64,000 nucleotides of DNA from a candidate division FCPU426 bacterium (GTDB taxonomy: Bacteria > Oederibacteriota > Muellerivitia > Muellerivitales > Muellerivitaceae). Each line of letters begins with the position of its first letter. Position 1 is the stretch's first letter. Positions 1-59,825 of this stretch are shown one piece after another. The translations under genes and the position numbers were made by a program. The stretch spans positions 192,001 through 256,000 of the forward strand of contig CAWCKJ010000002.1 of assembly GCA_963796105.1 (NCBI GenBank), in the 5' to 3' direction. The notes beneath the pieces were generated by a model. That model was given only the letters and a program-made list of their open reading frames with translations, did not search any database and was not told the DNA's origin.

Positions 1-625
1 ACAAAGCGGCCAAAGCTGGGGCGTATGTCACGCCATTACCGGAAAACCCGTAAGTAACGCTAGCGTTTCCGGCCCCTTCATCCCCCCATTTCCAATAAAC
101 CTTGGGTTGCGAGGAAGTGTCCTGTACCGTCCATACTCTCTTGACAGATCCTGTTACCGTTCCTCCAGTAATGGATAAAGTTGGTGATGTGCTCTTCGTA
201 ATTGAAAGAGTTAAATTGTAGGTTCGGAGATTGCTCACTGCGTGGACTATTCGGGAATGAGGACCAGAAGGAAGAGTTCCGTTGCCGATCACGTAATAGT
301 ATTCGTTAAAAGTGAGGCCGTCGGGATTATCGGTAATGGTTATGAAATCTCCACCGACGCTCACTGTGGTAACAGGGGAAAAACTGCTCCCGTCAGAACT
401 GTCCCAAAAGCCATAATTTTTGACATAGGGGCTTGTGTCAACCGCCCAAAATACCTGCGCATAACCCTGCGGAGAATAGTCGCCCAAAACTCCCATCGGG
501 GTAGGAAGAATGGAAGGAGTTGCGGTTGGGGTGGGCGCTAAGGGGGATATATGAATATCTTTTTGGCAATTCAGACTTAAGAGTGCGATGGTTATAACGC
601 AAAAGGCTAGAAGCAGATTTTTCAC
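1..625 (-). CDS. Lipoprotein of unknown function (runs off left edge)
   Basis: Hand translation from GTG at 625 with GGAGG RBS: MKNLLLAFCVITIALLSLNC (lipobox-like), short PTPT linker, beta-rich body, no stop before position 1. Absent from the ORF track. Confidence 0.8.
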   Translation of the reverse strand, partial: MKNLLLAFCVITIALLSLNCQKDIHISPLAPTPTATPSILPTPMGVLGDYSPQGYAQVFWAVDTSPYVKNYGFWDSSDGSSFSPVTTVSVGGDFITITDNPDGLTFNEYYYVIGNGTLPSGPHSRIVHAVSNLRTYNLTLSITKSTSPTLSITGGTVTGSVKRVWTVQDTSSQPKVYWKWGDEGAGNASVTYGFSGNGVTYAPALAAL

Positions 626-801
626 GAGCAGGATTCCTCCATAATCTTGAAAGATAATTTTATCACAATCTGGTTGATTGTATTTTTGAATAGCAGGGAA
701 CCGACTTTAATAACCATTTTGAACTTATTTGCCTAGCAAATATGAAATTCGATTCCGTAAAGTGTTCAAACCGCTGTATTTTCTCATTTTTTATTAAAGG
801 C

Positions 802-1010: not shown

Positions 1011-4000
1011 ATGAAAAAAGTAAAATTTCCATCCAGCCATCCAAAATATTTTTTCTATCCTTTTTTGGAAGGCATTAAAAGCTTCTGCTTAGCCTTTTCC
1101 TTTTTAGCTGTCTCGAACATTGTTTTATGTCTTACTGCCCAACCCGCAAGTGCCCAATGTCCTATCGGCTTTAGTTCCGCCGCGACCTATACCGGCACCG
1201 CCAAGAGTGCTGTAATTAACGCGACGGTCGGGGGAACCCAAACACTTCTACTTTTACAGGTAAGCATCCAGAATGCCTCGAATTCTGTGACCCAGGCGAC
1301 TTATAACGGTACTTCTTTCATTAGGGTTCGTCGGGGTGTGGACACTACGAATGGAGTTTCACTGGAAACTTGGTATCTGGTCAACCCGCCATCTGGTACC
1401 TACCCTGTGACAGTTAAAACCAACAGCTTGACCGCGCGAGTCCTACACATCGGGGCGGTTTGTTATGATTTAGTGAACCAAACAAATCCCATCGGCGCGT
1501 CAAACGCTGTCACGAACCAGGCTTCCAACAGAAACCATTCCATTGGGCTTACCACCAAATACGCCCAAAGCATGATCGTCTCCATGTGTATGGTGGCAAA
1601 CAGCACTGGATCTCGAACAATTACCTCGGCTGCTGGTCAAAACCAAAGATGGAGGGAGCTGAACAATAAAACGACCGCGGGGGACGACAAACTTTCAACT
1701 ACGGTCGGCGCTTACACCATGGCTTATACTTTCAACAGGTCCCAAAGGGCGGATATTCAGGCAGTGGAAATTATCGCGGCTGGTTGCACCCCGACACCAA
1801 CACTTACCAATACCGTTACAAGAACCCCAACGATAACCAACAGCCCCACCCCCTGGCCGACTGGTGTTCCAACTTGGACTTCCACCAACACGCCGACCAT
1901 TACCCACACTCCTACCGCGACGGCAACAACGACTTTCACCCCAGCCCCTTATGACATCACTTCCTTTATCAATGGAACCTGCGTCACGGGAAACACGACC
2001 GGACTTGTCGATAACTACAACGAATCAATAGATGGCATTCCATTTGGGCAAGGAGCTCCTGACACTATTTATTCTTTCAGCCTGACCCAAACAACTAATC
2101 TTTTCATCAATCTCTGTGGCGCTAATTTTGATTCAGTGGTTTATTTAAGGACTAATCCGAACGATCCAAACACAACCTTGGCATTTGATGATGATTCCGA
2201 CTTTTGCGCCACTTCCTCCTCCTCTTTTGTGATAGGTGACCTTCAACCAGGCATATATTACATAATTGTGGATGGAAATAGTCCGGGTGATTACGGGACT
2301 TTCTCGCTTTGTGTCACTACCTTTAGCCCCACTTGCTCCTTGACTCCCGCGGCGACGCCGGTGGCGCTGCAAAGCCCGACCAGCACCACCAACCTGGGAA
2401 TCGTGTTGACGACGGCAGTGGGAACCGGTCACTTTGATTATGATTTCGAGTACACGAACAGTTGGACTTTTACTCCAGGGAAAATAGGATCCTATGAAAT
2501 TTCGCTGGACTGCTTTGATGACGCAACGGGCAAGGCCCGTGTGGCTTACGATTTATTTGATTCGGGTGGTAACTTGATAACGAGTTCAGCGGGGAGCACC
2601 CCCTTGGACCAAATGGCCGCGAACCTGACCATTCAACAATACACTGTGGTGGTTTACGCATTTTCCGCTGGTGCCCCGAGCGGGGATTACCATTTGATCA
2701 TCCAGGCGCCGCTACCGACGGCCACGCCTACGCCTACATCCACCGCTACTAAAACGATGACTCCCACTTCCACGCCAACCAATTTGAACGGCTATACCAA
2801 CACCCCAACCTTGACACCTACGTTAACCCCTACTAACTTGAACGGCTATACCAGCACCCCTTCATACACTAAAACATCCACCCTCACCAGTACGCCCACA
2901 CCGACCCCTACCCTCGTTCCAGGCGTCACAGACATCACCTCCAGCATCGGAGTATCATGCATAACGGGAGATACGACCGGGCTTACAGACAACTACAACG
3001 AGACAGCAGACGGTATACCTTATGGTTCCGGGGCCCCTGACACCATTTTCTCGTTCATCTTGACCCAAACCACCAGCCTATTCATTAACCTATGTGGGTC
3101 TGATTACAACTCAGTGATTTATTTGAGGACCAATCCGAATGATCCAGCTACCACCCTTAACTTGGACAATGATTCGGACTTCTGCGACACCCCTACCGGT
3201 TCCTCGCTTGTCACGGGTAATCTTGCTCCTGGGACCTATTACGTGATTGTGGATGGCTATGGTTCGGGGGATTATGGAACCTTCTCCCTTTGCCTCACCC
3301 CCTTCAGCCCTACCTGCTCGTTGACGCCTATCGCAACACCGGTGGCGTTGCAGAGCCCCACCGGCACCACTGACCTGGGAACTGTGATTGTGGACGCGGT
3401 TGGAATCGGCCATGTGGATTATTATTTCGAATACACCAATAGCTGGACCTTTACGCCGGCAACGGCTGGTTCCTTCGCGATCTCTCTGGACTGCTTTGAC
3501 GACGGAACTGGCAAGGCCCGCGCGGCGTTTGACCTTTTCGATTCCATCGGCAACTTTGTTGGGAGTTCCACTGGGAATACACCCTTAGACCAACTCGCTG
3601 AGAACATGACCGTACAACAGTACACTGTGGTTGTTTACGCTTTCTCTGAAGGGGCTCCGAGCGCAGATTACCGTTTGGTCATCCAAACACCCTCCACAAT
3701 ACCCACTCCCACTCCGACCGTCACAGACACTTCAACAAATACTCAAACACCGTCCAACACCCCGACTTCAACACCAACCTATAGCCCGACACTCAGTTCG
3801 ACATCAACGCCTAGCGATACACCAACCTCGACTTCTTCAAATACACGCACTCCTACCGTTACCTTTACACCCACTGCCACAGATACGCCCACTGTCACCA
3901 ATAGCCCCACCCCTTGGCCCACGGGAGTTCCCACTTGGACTTCCACTGACACTCCAACCACCACCGACACTCCGACGGATACCCAAACGCCGACAAACAC

Positions 4001-4892
4001 CCTGACTTTAACACCAACCTATAGCCCGACACCCAGTTCGACATCAACGCCCAGCAATACACCCACCTCGACAGCCTCGAATACACCTACTCCGACCGCT
4101 ACCCTTACATCCACTCTCACGGATACGCCCACTATCACCAATAGTCCCACCCCTTGGCCGACGGGCGTACCTACTTGGACTCCCACCAACACTCCAACTG
4201 TCACAGATACACCCACAAATACACTGATGGCAACGAATACCCAAACCTACACCAAGACGGCTAGTCCAACCGCAACTCTAACAGCAACTTCCACGGATAC
4301 GCCTACTATCACCAATAGTCCCACCCCTTGGCCGACGGGTGTGCCCACTTGGACTTCGACTAATACATCGACTGTCACAGAAACTCCCACAAAAACCCTG
4401 ACATCAACCTCCACTTTGACGCGGACTCCGACTATGACCCCAACAACCACCCTGACCTTGACTCGGACCCCGACCGCAACGCCAAGTCTGACCCGAACAC
4501 CGAGTGACACTCCAACTGATACTTATACTGTTACGTCCACGTCGACTCCCACTTTTACTCCGACTAATTTGGGTGGTTATACCAGCACTCCTACGGCAAC
4601 CCCTGGTTCTTCCTTCTCGTTAAGCATCAACCAAATGAATTCAATATCGGGACCACCTCTAGGTATTAATTACCAGGTTGTCCAGGGCGGAAAGGTTCAA
4701 TTGGAGGTTTTCAACGATGTGGGAAAAAAGATGAGGGATTTAGCCGATGACAACCAAGTACCAGGTTATTACAGCATCAATTGGGATGGGAAGGACAACT
4801 TGGGCCAGCCACTTTCGACAGGGCTTTATTTGATCGTTTATGTGGAGAATTCAAACACTCAGATCAAAAAAGTTATAGTGATTAAACGATGA
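1011..4892 (+). CDS. Secreted Pro/Thr-rich multidomain surface protein with duplicated PPC-like modules and C-terminal FlgD-Ig/T9SS-CTD-like domain
   Basis: Signal peptide ending ASA|QC; two ~255-aa copies of a Cys-containing module; PT linkers; C-terminus [14 protein letters not shown]...[16 protein letters not shown]...KKVIVIKR. Confidence 0.8.
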
Positions 4893-6709
4893 GAACATTA
4901 AGCCTTTTCCTCGCACTAGTTATATTTTTTGGATTATATTTCCGGGCAATGGGAAGCGGTTTGTCCACCGGCGCTGATTTTCTAACCGCCACCACCGGCG
5001 CCAGGCCTGCGGCCATGGGCGAGGCTTTTAGCGCCTTGTCGGATGATATCAACTCTCTGGCAGTCAATCCGGCCGGATTGGGAAACCTTCACTTACCTCA
5101 GGTCGCTTTCTGCCATTACCAATTCGTGTCCGACCTCGCCTATGATTTCGCCGCCGCGGGAATCCCCTTGGGCACGGCAGGAACCCTTGGGATAAGTTAT
5201 TTGGGCCTGGGAGTTCCTCCTTTCAATAGCACCTTGAATCCTTTGGCGACCTTGGGCACGGATTCGGAGGGGAATCTGACAGCTGGATGGGGAAATTCCT
5301 GGGGTATCTTTCAGGCTGGCGCGGCATTGAAATATATTTACCGGGATGTCGGAACCGTGAGCGGAAAAACCTGGGCGGCTGACCTAGGAGTTAGATTAAG
5401 ACCCATGACCCGCCTCTCCTTCGCGGGAAGTTTGCTGAACCTTGGTCCCTCCATCAGCCTTTCCAGCGAGGAAAGTCTTCCTACTGAGTTGAAATTAGGG
5501 GCGGCTTGGCGGGCTCTGGAACATTCGGAGCACTCTTTAGATTTGGCCTGCGAAACCAACGTGGCCCTGGCTTCCAGCCAGCTTCCGCGTTTCGGGTTCG
5601 GGATGGAATATTGGTACAAGGATCTTTGCGCCTTGCGAGCGGGCTATTTGGTTGACACCAGCTCGGAAGGGTTCACCGCTGGAGCGGGCATTCAATTATA
5701 TGGATTGGAAGTGGATTACGCTTACCAGCCTTTCGACCAACTAGGTGCGACCAACCGAATCTCCGGGTTATACCGCTGGGATGGGCCCTGGATTTCCGGT
5801 GGGGAATTGAATCCACCGAGACTTTTAACTATTCGCACCAGCCCCAAAGGGGCGGTGGCTTCCTGGATCGAGCCAAAAGGGCCGGTGGATCATTATGAAT
5901 TGACGGTTGTTCTTCTGGAGGATAAAAAAATCCAGGTGTTTGACAATATCCCTAAATCCCCGGTTGTCTTGAAGCACCTGAAGGAAGGAGTCCTCTATAA
6001 GGCCGAAGTTGTCGCTGTTGGGAAAGGAGGTGGAAAGAGTATGCCATCCAACACGGCATTCTTGAAAACCTCGTCGGAGATCACACCAGAGGGTGCCCCG
6101 GTGACCGCGTCCTCCAAGGAAACTGAAAAGCCGCAGACAACTATTACTACGACGATTCAGGGCCAGGTGGATGAAGTAGGACTTAAATTAACGTGGGAAC
6201 CGATAGCCGGGTTTTCGACGAAAGGTTATTATCTTTACCGAAAATCCATTGACGGCAAATTGGAAAAACTAACCGGTACTCCCAAAAAGGGAATTGTCCT
6301 GTGGATAGATGATATTTTAGGCTTGGAGGGAGCGGAATGGATTGTCACCTCCGTGAACGCCGAGGATGAAACCGAAAAAACGGTTGGTTCCTTTGTTTGG
6401 AAACCAGGGCCGAAAGACGTTGATATTCTCAAAATCAAACCCCAAGTTAAGGTTTCTGCGATCCCTCAAAAAGAGGGAAAAGTCCTGATGGAATGGGAAC
6501 ACAGCCATGCCGCTGGTTCGCTTCTGTTCGTGTCTCGATCCCAGGAACATGTTTTCTCGCTTGTGGGTAAATTGAATACTCAAATGTCCAAGAACCTATT
6601 AAAGGGGTTTGAGAAGGGTCAGGAGTACCAGTTTATTATTGTTAATTTGGACGCTAACGGTGCCTGGCTGAGTCATAGTAGGGTGGTTTCTGCCAAAATA
6701 TCCGACTAA
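4889..6709 (+). CDS. PorV/PorQ-family (UPF0164-like) outer-membrane beta-barrel with C-terminal Fn3-like domains
   Basis: [34 protein letters not shown] is the typical PorV N-terminal motif; barrel end LRAGY...GAGI...VDYAY; beta-sandwich extension; ATGA overlap with the upstream gene. Confidence 0.8.
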
Positions 6710-7042
6710 TTCCTCGCTCAAAAAGACTTTTATGGGTAACGTTTATTAATCCCGAAATATTCGATCATTCTTTCCTCATGGATGAAAAAACATAGCTGGG
6801 GATACATTGGTTTTGCCAGCCTCTTCATCCATTTAAAAGCCTTCATCCGGAAGCTCTTGGTAAGTTAAACGTCTTAAAACCTCCTGCTGTGGCAAAAAAC
6901 CTTGTAAATAGGCCCCAATTCATTGCGATTTCCATATGGCAATGTTATAGTAAAAAGGCTGTTCAAAGCTAACCATCGATAAAATTCTAACCCAAAGGGT
7001 ATTTTTTTGGGTTTTTTCGCCGGGTGAAAAGTCAGGGGTTTT

Positions 7043-9643
7043 ATGGCCGATTCGGGTAATGTCGATAAAAAAAACATTGTCAAAATGGCCTATATATATT
7101 TCCAAGAAGGCCGTTGGGACAAGGCTATTGAAGAATACAAGAAGCTGATCTCTTTGGACCCCGAAGACACCAACGCCCACAATATGTTGGGCGATGTTTA
7201 CGTCAAAAAGGGGGCTATTCGTGAGGCCTTTGAGGAATATAACCGTGTTTCCACCGATCTCTCAACCCGAGGCCAAACGGAAAAAGTCATTATTGTTAAC
7301 AAAAAAATAGCCTCGCTTGACCCCACCCTTCTTCCCGCGGACGCTCAGAAAAAACAAAGTCTCATCAAACAGACTTTCAAGGCCGAGAACGCCATGGAAC
7401 ATGGCGACATGGAGTCGGCCATCGGGGCCTTGAGTGAAGTCATCAAATTGGATCCCGATAATCTTGCGGCTTATTCCAAATTGGGGGACCTTTTCGAGAA
7501 AAACGGCCGTTTCGAGGAGGCTGTGAAGGAATATTTGGTGCTGGGAGAAGTTTTCCTGAAAAACCGCCTTTACAAGAAAGCCCAGGAAATGTTCCAAAAA
7601 GTTGTCCAACTTGAACCCAATAACACCGATGCGAGGGTAAATCTCGCCCAAATTTATATCAAACAGGGTTCTGAAGGCGACGCGAAAAAGGAATTTCTCA
7701 TCATCGCCGAACTCGCATTGAACCAGAATGACATGGAGCGAGCCACTCTTTACTCCCAAAAGGCTGTTGAATTCAAGAGTATTGAGGCCCATTACATCCT
7801 TGGCATGGTTTATTTCCGAAAACAACAATTCTCAGAGGCCAAGGTGGAATTTGAAAACCTCCTCCGATTCAAAGTCAACCATGTCGGTGCTTTAGCGCAC
7901 CTGGGCAAGGTCTTGTTGTTGCAAAACCAAGCAGATAAGGCGACAGAAATAATTCAAAAAGCTTTGAAATTGGAAAAAGATAACCTGATGGCACTCGAAG
8001 TTTTCGTGGAACTTTCCTTAAAAAAAGGCGCCAAAAACGAAGCTACCCAAACTTTGAATTTATTGGTGGATCGTTATGACGCGAAAAAGGACACGAAGAA
8101 AGCCATAGAATTCGCCAGGTACCTGGTTTCTGTGAACGAGTCAGATCCGGCGCCTGAGACGAGGCTAGGGGATCTTTTATTGCGCGAGGGGGATAAGGAT
8201 GGGGCGGCAGACGCCTACTTCAAGGCGGCCATGGCATTTGATAAACATGAAAAAAAGCCTCAAGCCCAGGAGTTCTTGAGAAAAGCTTTGGAATTGAATC
8301 CTGGGCATTCAGAGGCTCAAAAGCGGGTCATGGGGGAAGTCGTTGCAAAGGCCCCACAAGCGGAGGAAAAACAGGCTGTGCCTCAACCCTCGGTTCCTGC
8401 CGCGCCGGCAAAGGCCTCCAAAACCGATGTTTTGGATTTGGAACAGGAAGTGGATAATTCCCCAACACCTCCGCCCAAGCAAGTTCCCGCCCCTGCTGCA
8501 CCATCCACTCCTCCTTCTCCGGTGAAATCAACCGTGATGGAATTGGAATCTTCCGATGATTGGAGGACGGAGCTCTCTATTGCCGACAATTACGTCAAAC
8601 AGGAGATGGTGGAGGAGGCGATCGAAATATATCAACGTTTGGCTGAAGCCCATCCCGAGGAAGCCGGAATCAAGGAAAAATTAAATCAGGCTTATACCGC
8701 TTATGTGAAAACCGGGGAGGATGTTTTGGGAGCCCTCGAGGCGGAGAAAAAGGTCAAGGAGGAGGAAGACAAACGAATTCACGCGGAGATGGAGAAAAAA
8801 GCCCAGGAAGAGGTTAGGCGTCTCCAATTGGAAATGGAACAAAAAGCCAGGATGGAGGCTGAAGTCAGAATACGGATGGAATTGGAGCGCAAAGCCAAAG
8901 AGGATGTGGAGAGAAAGATTCAGGAGGAAGCTGAAAGAAAAATCAGGGAGGAGGCTGAGCGAAAAGTCCAGGAAGAAGCCGAGCGAAATGCCCGGGAAGG
9001 GGCAGAACGGAAAATCAGGGAAGAAGCAGAACGTAAAGTCCGAGAAGAGGCTGAAAGAAAAGTCAGGGAAGAAGCTGAGCGCAGGGCCCGGGAAGAAATG
9101 GATAAACGCGCACATGAAGAAGCCGTTAGAAAGGTTAAGGAAGAGGCTGAGCGGAAAGTCAGGGACGAGGAGCAAAGGAAAATCCGAGAGGAGGCGGAAG
9201 CCCGTCGAAAAGAGCGCGAGGAGAAGGAAAGGAAAAACCGGGAGGAGTCGGAAAAAAACAGCAAGAAGAACGCGCCGATTGGAAACATAAAGGTTTTTCG
9301 CGAGGAGCCAACCTCTAAAAGCGATAGTTTGGTGGAGGATGGAAAGGATGAATTTATGACTATTGCCGTGGCGGATATTTACGCGCGCCAAGGACTTCTT
9401 GAAGAAGCCATTAAAATATACAAACGCATTTTACAAATGGAACCTGACAATCTTGAGGCCTCCAAAAAGTTAAAGGATGTTGAAAGCCGCTTTAAATCTA
9501 TTACCCCGGTTGTTTCCGCTCCCATTGAAGCTGCTCCTGCACTTAAAAATCCAGCGCCCATTCCGGTGGAATCCCAAACTGACCCACCTCGTGAGAAAAA
9601 TTCGGATGGCAAAAAGAAATCAAATAGGGTAGGCTACGTTTAA
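7043..9643 (+). CDS. Large TPR-repeat protein with charged EEAERK repeat region
   Basis: Many TPR motifs (AIEEYKKLISLDPED...), Pro-rich linker, tandem REEAERK(V/I) repeats, C-terminal TPR. Confidence 0.85.
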   Translation: MADSGNVDKKNIVKMAYIYFQEGRWDKAIEEYKKLISLDPEDTNAHNMLGDVYVKKGAIREAFEEYNRVSTDLSTRGQTEKVIIVNKKIASLDPTLLPADAQKKQSLIKQTFKAENAMEHGDMESAIGALSEVIKLDPDNLAAYSKLGDLFEKNGRFEEAVKEYLVLGEVFLKNRLYKKAQEMFQKVVQLEPNNTDARVNLAQIYIKQGSEGDAKKEFLIIAELALNQNDMERATLYSQKAVEFKSIEAHYILGMVYFRKQQFSEAKVEFENLLRFKVNHVGALAHLGKVLLLQNQADKATEIIQKALKLEKDNLMALEVFVELSLKKGAKNEATQTLNLLVDRYDAKKDTKKAIEFARYLVSVNESDPAPETRLGDLLLREGDKDGAADAYFKAAMAFDKHEKKPQAQEFLRKALELNPGHSEAQKRVMGEVVAKAPQAEEKQAVPQPSVPAAPAKASKTDVLDLEQEVDNSPTPPPKQVPAPAAPSTPPSPVKSTVMELESSDDWRTELSIADNYVKQEMVEEAIEIYQRLAEAHPEEAGIKEKLNQAYTAYVKTGEDVLGALEAEKKVKEEEDKRIHAEMEKKAQEEVRRLQLEMEQKARMEAEVRIRMELERKAKEDVERKIQEEAERKIREEAERKVQEEAERNAREGAERKIREEAERKVREEAERKVREEAERRAREEMDKRAHEEAVRKVKEEAERKVRDEEQRKIREEAEARRKEREEKERKNREESEKNSKKNAPIGNIKVFREEPTSKSDSLVEDGKDEFMTIAVADIYARQGLLEEAIKIYKRILQMEPDNLEASKKLKDVESRFKSITPVVSAPIEAAPALKNPAPIPVESQTDPPREKNSDGKKKSNRVGYV
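8900..9240 (+). repeat. Degenerate 24-bp coding tandem repeat (R/QEEAERKV/I)
   Basis: Visible 8-aa periodic repeats in the translation; boundaries approximate. Confidence 0.75.
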
Positions 9644-9856
9644 TATTTCCGTTAATGTCATTTGCTTCCCGAAAAACCACAAGCATTAAATCAACGGAAT
9701 TAAGTTCTCTATGTGTTTTCTTTTCCTCGTGTTTTCGGGTTGTTATGAATATTGGCGAATTTTTCCCTTTTGACTGACTGTACCTAAAAGTCAATCCCTT
9801 TGACTAACAGGTTATAATGTTCATTAAGGTCGGGAAACATTTGGAAGGGATCCAGT

Positions 9857-10678
9857 ATGAGCTATGAAAACTTTTACGGCTTGAAGGAACAAGCGTTTTC
9901 AAACGCGCCTGACAGCCGCTTTTATTTTGAAAGCAGCCAACATTCCGAAGCCATGGTTCGCATGTTGCATGCGGTGGACACCATGAAAGGCCTAACGGTC
10001 GTTGTCGGGGACATCGGCACGGGGAAAACCCTGCTAGCTCGAAAAGCGCTCGAAATGCTGGAACAGGATCATCAATACGAAGCCACCCTGCTTGTGATTG
10101 TCCATAGTGAAATCACTGCTGAATGGATGTTGAAAAAAATCGCCCACCAATTGGGAGTGGAAAATCCCAGCGACGCCAAAGCCCAGATCATTTCCCAATT
10201 ATACGAACGCCTCATGAAAATTTACGAAGAGGGCCGCAAGGCGGTTGTGGTCATCGACGAAGCAAATATGCTTCAAAAGAAAGAGATTTTCGAGGAGTTC
10301 CGGGGTTTGCTGAACCTGGAGGTTCCCGGAAGGAAACTCATATCCTTTGTCTTGTTGGGCCTTCCTGAGCTGGAGAAATACCTGGCCTTGGATCCGCCGC
10401 TTTTCCAGAGAGTGGCCATGAAATTTTTCATCAAATCCTTGACTCGTGAATCCACGGAACAGTATATCCGCCACCGTTTAAGTGTCGCGGGTTGCACCAG
10501 GGATCTTTTTACCGCCAACGCTTACCAGAAAATTTTCGATTACACGAAGGGAATTCCCCGCTTGATCAACACCTCCTGCGATAACGCCATGCTGGAAGGT
10601 TACCTTTTAAAAAGGGAAGCCATCGACGCGGACATTATCGAACAGGTTGTCAAAGATTTGGGGTTGAAAAAAGATTAG
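9857..10678 (+). CDS. exeA: ExeA/GspA-family AAA ATPase
   Basis: YENFYGLKEQAFSNAPD N-terminus, Walker A GDIGTGKT, Walker B VVIDEA, GIPRLINTSCDNAM. Confidence 0.85.
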   Translation: MSYENFYGLKEQAFSNAPDSRFYFESSQHSEAMVRMLHAVDTMKGLTVVVGDIGTGKTLLARKALEMLEQDHQYEATLLVIVHSEITAEWMLKKIAHQLGVENPSDAKAQIISQLYERLMKIYEEGRKAVVVIDEANMLQKKEIFEEFRGLLNLEVPGRKLISFVLLGLPELEKYLALDPPLFQRVAMKFFIKSLTRESTEQYIRHRLSVAGCTRDLFTANAYQKIFDYTKGIPRLINTSCDNAMLEGYLLKREAIDADIIEQVVKDLGLKKD

Positions 10679-10820
10679 CTATCCTCCCTGCATCAATCCG
10701 AACTTCTCCCAGTCTCCCCAAAAACGATCGTTTCAGTTGAGCCCTATTGGATTTTGCTTACCGGATTGAAAAGGCATGGAAAAACAGGGCCTAAAATTTT
10801 AGATTCACCCATCACGGTTT

Positions 10821-11651
10821 TCATTGCCAAGGTGTAAAAGCCCAAACCATCAGACGGAATTTCTCGAAAAAAATAGTTGAAAGAACGCCGGCGCATAAAA
10901 AAGGCCCAAAGGGAATGGGAGATTTTGGCTTCAGCCTGCCGGTCAACATTAGAAGAAGACCCAAAAACCCCGCGGTAATGGAACCCGCAAATAGCGCGTC
11001 GATCACTCTTTCCCATCCGACAAAGATCCCGAAGGACGCTAAAAGCTTGATGTCACCGCCGCCCATGGCTTCCTGCTTCAAGAATTTTTCACCAAGCCAG
11101 GCCATGAGAAGCAAAACGCCGCCGCCCGTGAGGAATCCTAATAAGGCTGATTCCACGCGGTCCGGCCAGCGCCCTCCTAAAAAGGGATTGAATGGAGCGA
11201 AACATAGGGCTGAAACCAGGAACGGAAAAACAATTTTATTGGGAATGGTATAAGTCCTGAGGTCGATTGCGGAGACGAGAATAGAAACGAGAACCATGAT
11301 TTCTAATATGACTAAGCTCAAAGGCGAATTGCTGAATTTCAGGTAGGCCCATAGAAACAGGACGCCAGTCACGGCCTCGACAAGGGGATATTGCCAGGAA
11401 ATCACTTTGCGGCAATAACGGCATCGGCCTCTCAAAAGTAAGAAACTGAGCAAAGGGATATTATCCCGCCACTTCAAGCGTTTTTTACATCTGGGGCAAT
11501 GGGACGGCGGACGCACGATGGACCGGCCCGAGGGAATGCGCAGGATGCAGACGTTCAAGAAGCTTCCAATGGTTAAACCGAACGTTAAAACAACCAGGGA
11601 GGGAAAAGACTGTCCTGCCCAGATTATGACGCTTGAAGCCATGCTTAACAC
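10821..11651 (-). CDS. pilD: Prepilin peptidase/N-methyltransferase (A24)
   Basis: GSFLNVCILRIP, SHCPRC and RCRYC Zn motifs, MGGGDIKL, IPFGPFL. Confidence 0.92.
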   Translation of the reverse strand: MLSMASSVIIWAGQSFPSLVVLTFGLTIGSFLNVCILRIPSGRSIVRPPSHCPRCKKRLKWRDNIPLLSFLLLRGRCRYCRKVISWQYPLVEAVTGVLFLWAYLKFSNSPLSLVILEIMVLVSILVSAIDLRTYTIPNKIVFPFLVSALCFAPFNPFLGGRWPDRVESALLGFLTGGGVLLLMAWLGEKFLKQEAMGGGDIKLLASFGIFVGWERVIDALFAGSITAGFLGLLLMLTGRLKPKSPIPFGPFLCAGVLSTIFFEKFRLMVWAFTPWQ

Positions 11652-35534: not shown

Positions 35535-35593
35535 CACTTGGAGTGAAAAGAAAACCCGCGGAAAACTCCCGCCACGAATGGTTAGGGGAGAAA

Positions 35594-38500
35594 ATGGCCA
35601 AGCGAAGAAAAGAATTTTTAACCGCCCTGATCCTTTTCACCGTTGGAATGTCCTTCTTTACCCTCCCGAAAACCGCCTCGGCCCAGTGTACGCCCTCAAG
35701 CGCGAGAATCTGCGTGGCCAGCGACGACTGGTCCCAGATCTATGTCGGCGGGGTTTACCTGGGCCAGATCAATTATTGCAACTGGGACGGGACGGGGAGC
35801 TGTCCTCCCGGTTGTATCACCGTCCCCACCTCGCTCATCTCCGGCAGCCAGGTTTATATTTCCGTCTACACCCAAAACACCGCTTGCAACAACGTCTATT
35901 CCTCCTGGGACCTGGATATCACCTGCACCAACGGCCAGCATTCCGAAATTACCAGCGCCAGCGGCGGCGTATCGCTGGACTATATCAGCTCAGGAAATCC
36001 TACCACCCCTCCCGCCTCCAACTGGTACGCGACCAATTTCACCGGCGGTACTTGGCAGACCCCCGCGGTGGTCAACACCACCGCCGGTGATTGCTGTTGG
36101 GGCCAAAGCATCTATAACCCTGTGACGGGCCAGACGGTACCCTTCACGTCCACCGATACCTCGGGCGCCTACAGTACGAGCAATTGCGGCGGTGCGCTTT
36201 TCTACTCCCAGGCCACTACGATCCCGCCTCCCGCCGCGACCGTGGGGCCGGCCACCATGACCGTCACGAAATCCCTGGTCGCGGGCCAGCCCGTCACCAA
36301 TACCAACAATGACATGTTCGTGACCTTCCAAGTGGTGGTTTGTAATACCGGCGGACCCGTGACGAGCGGAGGCGTGACCCTGACCGACACGCAAGCCGGG
36401 GGAACTGCCTTTGCCTTCATCGGCTGGATCATTCCCGCGCAATCACCCATCTCCATCGATTACAACGCGAACGCGAGCTGGCCGGTTCCGGCGGCCAGCG
36501 GGGGAAGCCCCGCGACCTGGGGCAATTTTCCAGGGAACTCCTGCGTAACCCTTCTTGCCAGCATGGAGGATTATTACTGGGAAGGGAACGCCTGCCAAAC
36601 GATCACCAATACGGCCAGCATAGCTTATTCCGGGGGAACGAAAAATTCTGGGATCGTGACGGTGGGCCGGCCCTGTACTCAGGGCACCCCCACCTTCACC
36701 AACACTTACACCTTCACCTATACCCATACTTTCACCTTCACCAACACTTTCACGCCGACCAGGACTCCCACGCCGACCAACAGCCCCACGAGGACTCCGA
36801 CGCCCACTCTCACCAACACCCCCACCAACACGTCCACTCCCACGAATACCCCCACCCGGACGCCGACCCCGACACCCACTAACACCCCGACTCCCACCCC
36901 CACGAATACGCCCACCCCAACCCCCACACCGACACCCACGAGAACACCGACTCCCACGCTTACGAACACACCTACACCGACCCCAACGAACACCCCTACG
37001 CCGACACCATCACCCACACCTACTCCAACAAGGACGCCGACCCCGACACCCACTAACACTCCTACCCCAACACCCACTCCATCACCCACACCTACCCCGA
37101 CCCGGACGCCGACACCTACACCCACCAACACACCTACGCCAACCCCCACCCCTTCGCCCACTCCTACCCCGACTAGGACGCCAACGCCTACACCCACCAA
37201 TACTCCGACTCCTACTCCGACACCTTCACCTACGCCTACGCCCACGGTTTCACCAACCCCTACTCCAACCAGGACACCCACTCCAACTCCCACGAACACC
37301 CCAACCCTAACACCTACAAACACTCCCACTCCGACACCCACACACACCCCGACGCCTACTCCGACTAACACTCCTACCCCCACCCCGACCGTAACGCCTA
37401 CTCCCACGCCAACCAAGACACCAACACCCACTCCTACGCCTACACCTTCGCCGACCCCTACCAATACGCCTACTCCTACACCCACCACGACGCCAACACC
37501 AACCCCAACCAGGACTCCTACTCCCACACCCACCAACACTCCGACTCCTACCCCGACGACAACCCCTACCCCAACCCCCACGAATACTCCCACTTCGACC
37601 CCTACAAGGACACCTACACCGACGCCAACAACAACACCCACACCAACGCCTACCAATACCCCAACTCCGACACCCACCAACACGCCGACTCAAACCCCGA
37701 CCAGAACCCCGACGAACACCCCTACTCCGACTCCCACCAATACACCCACGAATACGCCCACACCCACACCCACGACTACTCCAACGCCTACCCCGACGAG
37801 GACTCCAACGCCAACCCCTACCAACACCCCGACCCCCACGCCTACAACGACGCCGACTCCGACACCCACCAATACACCAACTCCAACTCCCACACATACT
37901 CCGACTCCAACACCGACAACCACCCCTACCCCGACCCCGACGAACACACCGACCAGGACTCCCACGCCGACTCCGACTCCTACTCCGACAACGACGCCTA
38001 CCCCCACTCCAACTAATACACCAACCATTACTCCAACACCCACTAATAGCCCCACGGGAACCCAGTCGCCCACAAATACGCCCACTATTACCCCAACCAA
38101 GACTCCGACCCCGACTCCCACCAATACACCCACGATTACGCCTACACCAACACCTACCAATACCCCGACTCGGACACCAACCCCTACCCCGACACCCACC
38201 CCAACAACAACTCCCACGCCAACGCCGACGAATACCCCGACACCCACCCCAACCAATACGCCTACGCCTACTCCAACCACGACGCCGACACCTACCCCCA
38301 CGAGGACTCCGACACCAACTCCTACCAATACTCCGACTCCCACCCCGACAACGACGCCTACTCCAACACCCACTAATACGCCCACTCCAACCCCCACGAG
38401 GACGCCCACTCCCACATCCACCACCACCCCATCACCCACTCCAACCAATACTCCTACTCCTACCCCCACGAATACCCCGACACCCACTCCTACAACTACC

Positions 38501-41434
38501 CCGACCCCTACTCCAACGAGAACCCCGACGCCTACCCCTACAAATACGCCTACTCCAACGCCAACCACCACACCCACTCCCACACCCACCAATACCCCGA
38601 CTCCTACTCCCACGAATACTCCTACACCCACCCCCACGACCACCCCGACACCTACTCCGACTAGGACACCGACACCCACTCCTACCTCCACGAATACCCC
38701 TACACCCACCACAACCCCCACTCCGACCCCCACCAACACGCCAACCATCACCCCGACTCCGACCAATACGCCCACAGGGACCCAGTCTCCCACGAATACG
38801 CCCACCATCACCCCGACCAAGACCCCGACCCCGACACCTACCTCTACCCCGACTGTGACACCTACTCCCACTCCCACGAATACCCCGACTTCTACTCCTA
38901 CCAACACCCCTACGCCCACGCCCACTACGACGCCAACTCCAACACCGACTTCCACCCCAACTAGGACTCCAACATCCACACCAACTCCTACTCCTACGAC
39001 CACCTCCACCCCAACACCCACTAATACGGCTACCTCTACCCCAACTAATACCCCGACACCCACCCCAACCCTGACACCCTCGCCGACTCCCACTAAAACT
39101 CCGACGAATACACCTACTTCCACGCCAACCCCAACCCCCACCATTACGCCCACCCCGACGAACACCTCGACCGGTACGACTTCTCCCACGAACACCTTTA
39201 CGGTCACTCCGACCCTGACTCCTTCACCCACTCCCACGAATACCCCTACGAATACGCCGACACCCACCCCAACCCCCACACCTACTTCAACACCGTCCAA
39301 TACCCCGACTTCCACACCCACTTCCACCCCGACACCCACACCCAGCAATACCCCTACAACTACTCCCACCCCCACTTACACGCCTACTCCCACCCAGACT
39401 CCAACTCCCACATCAACCGACACTCCGACCGACACGCCTCCTTTCACCTATACAAACACCAATACCCCAACAAACACATCCTCCCCGACGGATACCTATA
39501 CATCCACTCCCACTCCGACTAACACCCCTACCCCGACTCCAACTAACACTTCCACAAACACCAACACTCCGACCGACACACCAACCAATACCCCGACCCC
39601 CACACCCACAAACACTCCCACCAATACCAATACCCCGACACCGACTTTCACGGACACACCAACATCCACGCCAACGCCTACTCCTACCGCCACCCCGACT
39701 GATACACCTCCATTCACCTATACAAACACCAATACCCCTACCGACACTTCCACCCCCACAAACACCAACACACCCACGAATACGCCGACTAATACCCCCA
39801 CTCCAACACCCACTAACACTCCCACCAACACCAATACCCCGACAGATACCGCCACACCGACCAATACCAATACCGCTACCAATACCTATACAGCGACCAA
39901 CACTCCGACCAACACCAATACGCCCACTAATACCCCCACCGCTACCAACACCTCTACTCCTACCAACACCTATACGGCCACCAATACCCCCACCAATACC
40001 AACACCCCGACTAACACCAATACTCCTACCAATACGCCTACTCCTACTCCCACCAGGACGCCTACTAACACTTCCACTCCCACGAATACGCTTACAGCCA
40101 CGAATACACCCACTAATACTAATACCCTGACACCTACCCCCACGGCGACCTTCACTCCCACCCCCACGCCTGCCGCGGTATTGGCCTTGCAAAAACAGGA
40201 GTCAGAATCAACAGGTTCCTCGGGGGATATGGTGACCTATACCTTGAATGTGAATGTCTCCAACGCCAACGCTCCCGGGGTAGTGGTGCAGGACCAACTG
40301 CCTCCCAACTGCACTTTCACGGCCTTCGGGGTCTCACCAGCAGGAACATCGGCCGTAACCACCGTTTCAGGCGGGGTGACCATGATGAACTGGACATTGC
40401 CCACCCTTATCCCTGGAAGCTACCAATTGACTTATACAGTCTCGATTAACAGCTTCACGCCCGCGGGACCCATTGTGAACTGCGCGGTCTTAAACTATCC
40501 GGGAATCTCACCATTGAGTTCCTGTGCCACATTAATGGTGACAGGGAGCTACACGGTGAAGATCGGGGTGTATAACGAGGCAGGAGAACTGGTAAAGACA
40601 CTGTTGGTAACCCAATATTCCCAGCCCTTGGTGGACCTGCAGTTGAAGAACGGGGATCTGATTAATGGGCTGAATGATCCCATCCTGATATATGACCAGA
40701 ATACCCAGATCACGGTGTGGAACGGGACAGACCAGAACGGGAACCCGGTGCCCAATGGTGATTATTACGTGAAAGTGGACAATGTCGATTCCTTCGGGGT
40801 GGATAAGAGCGTGGTATTGAACGTGGTGGTGAGCAGGTCGTTGGAGAAGGTGACGATCGACATATATAACGAGGCTGGAGAGATCGTGGACACGCTCTAC
40901 AGCGTGGTGGAGGACCCACAAGGGACGGTGATCACAGGGGTGAAGCTGTCAGGGACGGTTTTGGAGCCAGGGTCGCCGACGGATGGGAACCTGATCATTA
41001 CAACCAATAACGGCGTGACAGCCACATGGACAGGCTATTCCTCAAGCGGGGCGGTGGTACCCAACGGGAAATACTTCATCGAGGTGCACTCCACCGATGG
41101 AAAAGGCGGGGAGACGGTGATCGTGACATCGGTGATGGTGTTGAACAATCCGAAACAGACGGTGCCGAAAGTCTGGGCCTATCCGAACCCGTTAACCGGG
41201 GGATTCAGCCAAGTGGAGTTCCAGGCCTCAAATCTTGGGATTAACCTGACGGTGAGGATTTACGACCTGGCGGGAGAGCTGGTGACGGAACTCAAAGGCG
41301 CCGGGGGAACGAGCCGGGTGACCTGGAATGCCGCAGGAATCTCAAGCGGGCTCTACATCGCCAAGGTGGAACAGAAGGACCTGACCGGGAAGATCATCGC
41401 CAAGCAGACACTCAAGATCCTGGTACAAAAATAA
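35594..41434 (+). CDS. Giant secreted surface protein: Cys-rich head, DUF11-like domains, ~1160-aa Pro/Thr stalk, tandem FlgD-Ig-like domains and T9SS type-A-like CTD
   Basis: ATG 35594 behind GGGGAG; signal peptide ending ASA|QC; C-terminal VWAYPNP...IYDLAGELV...SSGLYIAK...KILVQK. Confidence 0.85.
36680..40172 (+). repeat. Low-complexity Pro/Thr ([10 protein letters not shown]) coding repeat tract
   Basis: ~3.5 kb of (A/C)CN codons with varied third positions. Confidence 0.95.
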
Positions 41435-57842: not shown

Positions 57843-59825
57843 ATGCGCCGATTCGCACAGAAAAGAAATAATTACATCTGGTTTTACGTCCTTTTCTTAG
57901 GGATCACTGCGGCGGTTATCGGTGCCTGCAGTAGTTCCAAGAGTCCTAGCTCCCCCGCACATTCCTCAGCCACCAGCACCTACACCTACACCCCCTGCAC
58001 GGATGGAAACGGCTACACCTGCACTCCGACTTCAACCAACACGGCTTGCATGGTGAACGGCACGCCCTGCACCAAGACGCAGACTTTCACCCCGACCCAG
58101 ACCTTCACCCAAACATGGACTAATACCCCGACCAACACATCCACGGTCACTTCGACCATCACCCCCTATCCCACCGCGACGGTAGGACTTTACGTCATCG
58201 AAGGACAGGTTCAATACAACGGATCCACCAATTTATCGGGAAAAGCGCTCCAGGTGTGTGGAAGTCCTGGCTTGATGGCCTGCGGGGTAACTTTCAGCGG
58301 CGACACCATTAAAAACGAGCTGTCCGCTCCCGGTCCCGTTGCCTATTCACTCAGTTTTCCAGGGAACGGCTCCTACGTTGTTTGGGCAAATCTTTGCCGC
58401 CCCGAGAACGAGATAGAAGTATTGGGCGGCGTAACGACCACCAGCCTGATCGGTTCCGCTTATGTTAACGCTCCCTACGCGATTTACGCGGGCACGACCA
58501 ACGCATGCTTCAACTCCGGTACCCCCACGACCTTCACTTTCAGCGGGCCCAATACCTTCACCGGCGTCAACCTCACCTTCGGCGACACCTGCGAGTTACC
58601 CGGCATATCCGGCACCATCACCTATACCGGCGCCAACGTGGTCAACGCGCAAAACGCCCTCTTTGTCCAGGCTTATAGCAACAGTAATTACACCGGTGGC
58701 CTCTTTTCTTCGATGGTGTCTGAGAATGGTGGAGCGTTCAAGGTGCTTCCTCCCTTGTGCGGCGGGCCCGTCTATCTCCAGGCCTATTCTTCCCCCGGGA
58801 ATTATTTATTAGCGGACTGCGATCCCGTGACGGACCTGGGTGCGATGGCGGCGAATTACGAGAACATCACCAACTACGCCATCACACTAACCGATGCCAA
58901 CCTGTATAACTGTACTTTCACCGCGACCCCCTCCGTAACGTCCACCCCCACCAATACCGTCTGCACGGATTCCAACGGCTATACCTGCACCCCGACTGGA
59001 ACTTTCACCCCCACCCCCACCAATACCGCCTGCGTGGACTCCAACGGATACACCTGCACCCCTACCCCCACCCCGACTGACACGAAAACACCGACCTCGA
59101 CCTTCACCAGCACCTTCACGCATACACCCACCCACACCTGGTCTCCCACCCCGAGCCCGACGATCATTCCTGACGCTTCCATCGGGTTCTATACCAACTC
59201 CCCCTTAGCGGTCCAAGCGGGTGTGCCCATACCCGCATCGACCAACCTGGCCAACAGCGCCTACGGGGGGACATCCCCCTATTATTACGAGGTGGGCACC
59301 CTCGCGGAGGGGACACCGCCCCTGGGGACCGTGGTGGACCTGAACGGAAACCTGGACGGCACGCCCTCCACCGTCGGTAGCAATGTCTTCGATGTCTGCG
59401 CCGTGGACTCCACCGGCAGGGGAAGCTGCCAGCCCGTCACCGTGGACGTGGTATCGGTGACCGTCACTTCCATCGTCCAGACCCTGGGGACCAAGGTTTT
59501 TGATGGAAACTGCGGCGACTACGGAAATTCCGAATACGTCACCATCACCGTCAACGGAACCGCGGCAGGGCCAGTCAGCACCTACCTCGACCTCGATATC
59601 GCCGGGGGAATGAATTACACCTGCCCCAGTTGGACCGTCGGGACCCAGACGGGACAGTTCTACCGGGCCACCGGCCAACCCTTGAGCGTGTCGTTCTCGC
59701 TCCAATACGTGGATTTCCTGACCAATTGCAATTCGGATACGGGCGGCTATTACAGCGCCGAGGTTGTCGCGGACGGATATGACTTTTTCAGCCTCAACCC
59801 CAATTTCACCGTCTTCTGGCAATAA
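57843..59825 (+). CDS. Cys/Thr-rich surface lipoprotein with Ig-like domains
   Basis: AGGAGG RBS; lipobox IGA|C; PT linkers with CxDxNGYTC loops; putative Ig segment (GGTSPYYY...G.LDGTP). Confidence 0.82.
   Translation: MRRFAQKRNNYIWFYVLFLGITAAVIGACSSSKSPSSPAHSSATSTYTYTPCTDGNGYTCTPTSTNTACMVNGTPCTKTQTFTPTQTFTQTWTNTPTNTSTVTSTITPYPTATVGLYVIEGQVQYNGSTNLSGKALQVCGSPGLMACGVTFSGDTIKNELSAPGPVAYSLSFPGNGSYVVWANLCRPENEIEVLGGVTTTSLIGSAYVNAPYAIYAGTTNACFNSGTPTTFTFSGPNTFTGVNLTFGDTCELPGISGTITYTGANVVNAQNALFVQAYSNSNYTGGLFSSMVSENGGAFKVLPPLCGGPVYLQAYSSPGNYLLADCDPVTDLGAMAANYENITNYAITLTDANLYNCTFTATPSVTSTPTNTVCTDSNGYTCTPTGTFTPTPTNTACVDSNGYTCTPTPTPTDTKTPTSTFTSTFTHTPTHTWSPTPSPTIIPDASIGFYTNSPLAVQAGVPIPASTNLANSAYGGTSPYYYEVGTLAEGTPPLGTVVDLNGNLDGTPSTVGSNVFDVCAVDSTGRGSCQPVTVDVVSVTVTSIVQTLGTKVFDGNCGDYGNSEYVTITVNGTAAGPVSTYLDLDIAGGMNYTCPSWTVGTQTGQFYRATGQPLSVSFSLQYVDFLTNCNSDTGGYYSAEVVADGYDFFSLNPNFTVFWQ

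Follow-up and report, generated by a model that had tools for sequence, protein, structure and literature searches.

Near the left end of the 64-kb window analyzed here (64,000 nucleotides of contig CAWCKJ010000002.1), two overlapping genes encode a putative secreted cargo protein and an outer-membrane β-barrel of the PorV family. The pair is laid out as follows.

1011–4892, forward strand: cargo gene, an open reading frame (ORF) of 1293 aa with a predicted signal region, a head, repeats, a Pro/Thr stalk, and a sorting-tail-like C-terminal domain (CTD)
1953–3686, forward strand: duplicated passenger module (aa 315–565 and aa 641–892, 72% identical)
3687–4595, forward strand: Pro/Thr/Ser-rich stalk of the cargo (about aa 893–1195)
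4596–4892, forward strand: FlgD-Ig/type A CTD-like β-sandwich of the cargo (aa 1196–1293), with the conserved Lys1287
4889–4892, forward strand: ATGA stop/start overlap of the cargo and barrel genes
4889–6709, forward strand: PorV-family outer-membrane barrel gene, an ORF of 606 aa
4967–5776, forward strand: 14-stranded FadL/PorV-fold barrel with an N-terminal hatch (about aa 27–296), the odd-numbered loops of which form the predicted tail-binding surface
5813–6697, forward strand: three Fn3-type domains past the last barrel strand (Fn3 match and model)

The cargo begins with a hydrophobic stretch, as read from its sequence, and its N-terminal head has no match in Pfam or the PDB. A weak PPC match falls on the first copy of the duplicated module, and Thr, Pro, and Ser account for a fraction of 0.6–0.8 of the residues in the stalk (about aa 881–1200). 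The ATGA overlap suggests that translation of the two genes is coupled; promoter and terminator scans performed no better than chance, and an Rfam search of the 64-kb window returned no match. The initial annotation had described a secreted Pro/Thr-linker protein with a FlgD-Ig/CTD-like domain at its end, its gene sharing an ATGA with that of a PorV-family barrel with Fn3 domains, and the ORFs, the overlap, and the family assignments all bear this description out.

The barrel passes the NCBIfam profile PorV_fam NF033709 (139.8 bits; cut-off 90) and reaches neither the PorV equivalog NF033710 (53.6 bits vs. 250) nor the PorQ equivalog, scores by which it is classed as a member of the PorV family and not as a PorV orthologue. 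Such barrels already carry the database label “PorV/PorQ family” in Firestonebacteria, Elusimicrobiota, and WOR-3. An AlphaFold2 model built from 51 sequences, with a mean predicted local distance difference test (pLDDT) score of 89, folds into 14 strands followed by three β-sandwich domains. The PorV structures 8GL6_F and 6H3I_F top its Foldseek ranking, and 6H3I_F is its sole sequence match in the PDB. In VIA-align the barrel aligns with PorV at Z = 34.2 (root-mean-square deviation, rmsd, of 2.8; 278 aligned residues; 21% identity), compared with Z = 30.8 (rmsd of 3.2; 266 aligned residues; 13% identity) for the best FadL. PF03349 (Toluene_X) gives no match to the barrel at E 0.01. The FadL/TodX channels (1T16 and 3PGR) have in common with the barrel the 14-stranded architecture, the N-terminal hatch, and an NPA motif; unlike them, the barrel is gene-coupled to a secreted protein, and its structural score and identity are lower to FadL than to PorV. 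The absent PF03349 match, the PorV-only PDB match, and the lower FadL Z lead us to reject a FadL identity. The PorV-like assignment of the initial annotation accordingly stands, by sequence and by structure, and no clustering with FadL transporters was found. Outer-membrane barrels end in the periplasm, so the three Fn3 domains would lie on the periplasmic side of the membrane.

At the C terminus of the cargo, the FlgD_ig profile matches with E = 4e-5 (23.9 bits, below the Pfam cut-off of 27) and, in a six-frame search, with 30.2 bits. The tail is modeled as an Ig-like sandwich (pLDDT of 94) whose best structural match is the C terminus of PorU (Z = 11.0, rmsd of 2.7, 94 aligned residues), with PorZ at Z = 9.9; such a fold would suit a type A sorting domain but is no proof of it. 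A Lys close to the C terminus is nearly invariant among related tails. The tail is of the subtype found upstream of PorV-family barrels with three Fn3 domains (Fn3x3 barrels), and 18 of the 21 tails at loci of that barrel subfamily match the type A CTD profile TIGR04183 at E 0.1 or better.

Co-folding of the tail with the barrel, which the initial annotation had proposed as a check, predicts binding, with an interaction prediction score from aligned errors (ipSAE) of 0.93 in ESMFold2 compared with 0.51 for the best control. Of 157 solved pairs, 116 reach the mark used for such co-folds, as do 2 of 215 mismatched ones, and these counts apply only approximately to runs that, like ours, use their own alignments. 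Contacts agree between runs to at least 99%, and the partner pLDDT is at least 89. The tail is predicted to contact the barrel at its hatch and at the odd-numbered loops, which are extracellular; its nearly invariant Lys touches Phe112 of the barrel. Compared by description and not by superposition of the structures, this contact can be set beside that of RemZ Lys1110, which bonds to Asn87 and Phe115 of PorV (PMC10994853).

The pairing recurs well beyond this locus. The genome holds 18 PorV-family ORFs (19 matches), ten of which lie directly after a tail-ended gene at gaps of 0 to −28 nt, whereas of 4041 other genes only 6 do so within a gap of ≤30 (Fisher p of about 1e-21), or 47 when the gap is relaxed to <300; the adjacency count that the initial annotation had suggested thus shows clear enrichment. 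Of 31 family genomes, 18 contain Fn3x3 barrels, with a tail-ended ORF directly upstream at 21 of 21 loci. Four genomes at greater distance together hold 71 barrels, 41 of which directly follow a tail gene (25/35, 8/15, 4/10, and 4/11), against 0 of 221 opposite-strand frames, a weak control. A profile made from 18 paired tails of other genera, with the genome itself and its genus left out, ranks the two Fn3x3-paired tails of this genome first and second of 123 (137.9 and 113.9 bits; the next scores 71.1), and the tail of a third Fn3-barrel partner is fourth of the 123.

The passengers behave differently from the tails. Passengers paired with Fn3x3 barrels (626–3384 aa; contig ends truncate 8 of the 21) are unrelated in most pairs, and their domains include L-type lectin, NHL, SBBP, and β-helix. 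At the syntenic site of a genome of the same genus, the DNA aligns over window positions 15–693 and 3877–8148 but the passenger does not, save for short stalk repeats, and the head of the cargo at that site is a lectin domain. The tail subtype is conserved with the barrel subfamily while the passengers swap, which is a stronger argument than the correlation of identities considered below.

Tails are far more numerous than barrels: 123 ORFs of the genome end in a tail by an iterated profile, a few of which resemble anti-sigma factors and are unlikely to be cargo. They sum to about 151,000 aa with a median of 1217 aa, and 87 of the 123 are Pro/Thr-rich. The expanded tail subtypes have 36, 19, 19, 12, and 9 members, with none or one adjacent barrel. 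One tail of the 12-copy subtype ends a second cargo within the window.

35594–41434, forward strand: second cargo gene, with a very long TP stalk and a YPNP-type Por_Secre_tail (ORF 35543–41434, ATG at 35594)

This cargo, which has no PorV neighbor, matches Por_Secre_tail (PF18962) with 36.3 bits (cut-off 27); its ATG, motif, and tail match agree with the YPNP-type CTD cargo that had been placed at 35594.

The pair lies in a genome of 4.98 Mb that is 96.8% complete. Over its length, the 16S rRNA reaches at most ~80% identity among 700 matching records (80.2% to Bacillus), and the Bacteroidota shown score 75.2% (Rufibacter) and 73.7% (Segatella); the named relatives of its RecA beyond its own clade are Bacillota, at 68–69%. 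These identities rule out a Bacteroidota origin, as the initial annotation had suspected, and the alternative of a Bacteroidota genome with a full canonical type IX secretion system (T9SS) did not materialize. The Atlas clusters nearest to the barrel list Candidatus Goldiibacteriota, the phylum being recorded for only 2–3 of their members. FCPU426 is equated with Goldbacteria in PMC7031533, and the organism is probably a member of this group.

One SprA gene is present (G000 C3), encoding a protein of 2017 aa that passes TIGR04189 as a whole (207.6 bits; cut-off 200). As a single-sequence query this SprA-like protein missed SprA in Pfam and the PDB, and profiles alone found it: a profile of 21 orthologues matches F. 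johnsoniae SprA (6H3I_A) at E = 5e-41 and, in HHalign, aligns with 99.95% probability to the annotated SprA of a Parabacteroides. Of 61 phylum genomes, 58 have SprA matches, and PorV-family matches are present in 31 of 31 genomes searched, at 10–55 per genome. The SprA of this genome bears N-terminal Fn3-like domains. Its recurring neighbors are lptF/lptG, which adjoin SprA at 15 of 21 loci; in the family, SprA lies beside an lpxD/C/A/I cluster (L003:9688–18343, L052–L071), and SprA is often followed by a large Fn3-rich gene, which in this genome ends in a tail.

The remaining T9SS components give a different picture. GldL and GldM have no match in the genome at E 1 and GldN has none, in searches that matched no T9SS-positive control; across the phylum, GldM and GldN are found in 0 of 61 and GldL in 0 of 41 genomes, and with the same lack of a positive control we term these proteins not detectable. 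A Parabacteroides record with sprA gave no GldM match and provides no control for these searches. The GldK model yields partial matches only in this genome (≤63 bits vs. a cut-off of 350), which we take to be generic FGE-sulfatase-type proteins. PorU (peptidase C25) is found in neither this genome nor any of 11 family genomes, in a search that does give matches in 7 of 61 phylum genomes. The PorP/SprF profile PF11751 has a single match, on a PorV-family barrel and below threshold (16.2 bits; cut-off 22.3). Of the T9SS parts for which the initial annotation had proposed profile searches, SprA is therefore present, with GldL, GldM, GldN, and PorU not detectable, and its description of a “minimal” T9SS holds for the core and fails for the carriers, which are expanded here and in relatives.

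PorV-like barrels and SprA-like matches were also observed in two Poribacteria genomes and one further genome (G081, G082, and G083; L007–L009), with SprA-like frames of about 2170 aa in two of the three and no GldM match in any; a search for GldN across 21 genomes around G081 found none. The first scan of the genome collection for the barrel had returned three distant barrels only.

We consider it probable, though well short of certain, that the pair consists of a surface adhesin and its dedicated PorV-family carrier and anchor, exported by a type IX-like route with SprA and with no detectable GldL/M/N or PorU. Cargo and barrel would both cross the inner membrane by Sec, after which the cargo tail would enter the single SprA pore and, at the lateral gate, bind its cognate barrel on the outer loops, as the co-fold predicts. 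The barrel–cargo pair would then leave SprA sideways and stay joined; with no sortase detectable, the cargo would remain uncleaved and barrel-bound. Retained in this way, it may display an exchangeable binding head on the Pro/Thr stalk at the surface and act as an adhesin, while the three Fn3 domains would reach into the periplasm, where they would serve to tether the complex or to dock it. If each coupled barrel is synthesized together with its cargo and never recycled, which is a guess, such single-use barrels would have less need for motor-driven extraction.

Several observations weigh against this reading. The paired cargo tail scores 17.5 bits against TIGR04183 (cut-off 23), is by sequence nearest to FlgD, and matches generic Ig domains (Z = 10.5 and 10.3) in a tie with its PorU match. 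The co-fold may owe its high score to likeness to the solved PorV–CTD complexes, it bears on binding and not on specificity, and the control scoring 0.51 was one that retained the tail. About 113 of the 123 tails have no adjacent barrel, and therefore shared carriers must exist. Across 51 pairs from five genomes, barrel and tail identities correlate with a Spearman coefficient of only 0.115, a value reached by 5 of 1000 within-genome permutations, and in 20 of 51 cases the tail of the nearest foreign barrel is among the three best; operon co-inheritance alone can give such covariation, and kin are not independent. Very divergent Gld homologues could possibly escape our searches. In F. johnsoniae, loading is energy-free and release from the translocon requires energy (PMC10994853), and a motor-less route therefore has an unexplained release step.

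The orphan tails and the weak overall covariation are what would be expected if the barrels were promiscuous type A-style shuttles on the same SprA route, their pairing reflecting co-regulation and joint inheritance and not specific recognition, and the plastic pocket of F. johnsoniae PorV does accommodate a variety of type A tails (PMC10994853). We regard this alternative as unlikely, since the tail subtype is retained despite replacement of the passenger and since, for barrels with a close match in another genome (at least 38% identity, a post hoc threshold), the partner tail comes out on top in 11 of 12 mutually dependent rows.

The energy dependence of release in Bacteroidota (PMC10994853) would fit a canonical-like energizing machinery, either a motor and track that have diverged beyond what the Gld profiles can recognize, or an ExbBD/MotAB-type substitute acting on the periplasmic Fn3, TPR, and OmpA tails of the barrels. 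Many barrels have such extensions, SprA has its own Fn3-like domains, and the Gld searches are uncontrolled; the uniform Gld counts of zero across the phylum and the absence of any apparent motor-like cluster flanking SprA at 21 loci make this rather unlikely. Least likely, and quite improbable, is that the cargo bypasses SprA by type II/pilus export or stays periplasmic, with the barrel a FadL-like channel or passive anchor: genes for an ExeA-like ATPase and PilD lie nearby, FadL is a close structural second, and FlgD-Ig, which this genome also has within barrel fusions and short proteins of anti-sigma-like appearance, is not always an export tag, but full-length SprA is near-universal in the phylum, PorV outranks FadL by sequence and structure, and the predicted interface lies on extracellular loops.

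The favored reading, a dedicated carrier on a SprA route, can be compared with two known systems. In the SprA/Sov–PorV system with type A CTDs (F. johnsoniae; 6H3I and 8GL6; TIGR04189, NF033710, and TIGR04183), as here, a giant SprA works with a 14-stranded PorV-fold carrier, the tail is Ig-like with a conserved near-terminal Lys, and the tail binds (here by prediction) to the outer loops of the carrier. However, F. johnsoniae uses one PorV for all type A cargo, whereas this genome has many barrels, ten of them gene-coupled to cargo; GldKLMN powers release in F. johnsoniae, whereas here GldL/M/N and PorU escape detection. Also unlike F. johnsoniae, many barrels here have periplasmic Fn3, TPR, or OmpA tails, SprA carries Fn3 domains, and the cargo tails are mostly FlgD_ig by score. 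In function the route would correspond to the outer-membrane core of a T9SS; in motor, ring, and sortase it departs from the T9SS proper.

With the type B CTD/PorP–SprF pairs (SprB–SprF and Fjoh_3952–Fjoh_3951–PorE), PMC12618676 describes cargo that stay bound on their PorP/SprF shuttles, and the likeness lies in a cargo gene beside a dedicated 14-stranded carrier that anchors the cargo, in orphan cargo that share carriers, and in a proposed tethering to the cell wall. The pairing logic is the same, but the carriers here are of the PorV family and not PF11751, the tails are type A/FlgD-like, and the tethering domains (Fn3, TPR, or FlgD-Ig with OmpA) are fused to the barrel in place of PorE. 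Three PorV-family barrels of this kind contain a FlgD-Ig domain internally and an OmpA peptidoglycan-binding domain at the C terminus (L093:13357–15105, L097:6318–8522, and L100:7380–9773), an arrangement that resembles a PorP–PorE fusion.

Other loci show further arrangements of the same domains. Proteins of 216–349 aa ending in FlgD_ig (L099:7567–11600, L096:3968–7751, and L096:14949–17552) are presumably anti-sigma-like, one lying directly after what we take to be a sigma factor-like ORF. They adjoin tail-ended cargo (PA14 with CBM9; NHL) as well as PorV barrels, and two of the three barrels have TPR tails; the loci are possibly a cell-surface signaling variant. Two tandem PorV-family genes lie in a flagellar cluster directly upstream of rod genes (L092:8848–12589). 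Within the window, the pair is followed at 7043–11651 by genes for a TPR protein (a weak SgmX-like match), an ExeA-like AAA ATPase, and a prepilin peptidase, and the same-genus synteny past the pair extends to at least 8148. Nothing links the ExeA-like ATPase, the PilD gene, or the window's hydrogenase genes, presumably Ech, to the cargo–barrel pair. A 660-aa ORF at 57843–59825 has no Pfam or NCBIfam match and a strong negative GC skew.

In the literature, the T9SS is described as confined to Bacteroidetes (PMC5445135), the T9SS or its tail as confined to the Fibrobacteres–Chlorobi–Bacteroidetes (FCB) group (PMC11205867, PMC5317091, and PMC4737851), and its origin is proposed to lie within Bacteroidota gliding (PMC12635249). 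Our literature searches, judged from their listings, returned no description of SprA with cargo-coupled PorV-family barrels outside the FCB group. Kulkarni (2017) and McBride and Zhu (2013) reportedly mention SprA and CTD genes in motor-less members of that group. With SprA encoded and no motor detectable, the export route is likely to be of a form not yet described.

A broader proposal, which we hold only tentatively and consider doubtful, is that an older export module, independent of a motor and present in several phyla outside the FCB group, consists of SprA, PorV-family carriers, and the CTD tag. Every surface protein would exit the pore on a single-use carrier of its own and then be anchored by it, and the Gld motor, track, and sortase would be later additions made in Bacteroidota. 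According to reviews and structural papers, the T9SS belongs to Bacteroidota or the FCB group, and motor-driven extraction is its energy-requiring step. A phylum outside that group that combines a conserved SprA with dozens of carriers and more than a hundred tagged proteins, and in which neither motor nor sortase is detectable, makes it testable whether the translocon functions without the Gld energy chain and whether it is older than gliding. The matched tail–barrel pairs with swappable passengers are a natural panel for carrier specificity, and the tail–barrel pair may serve as a modular surface-display tag.

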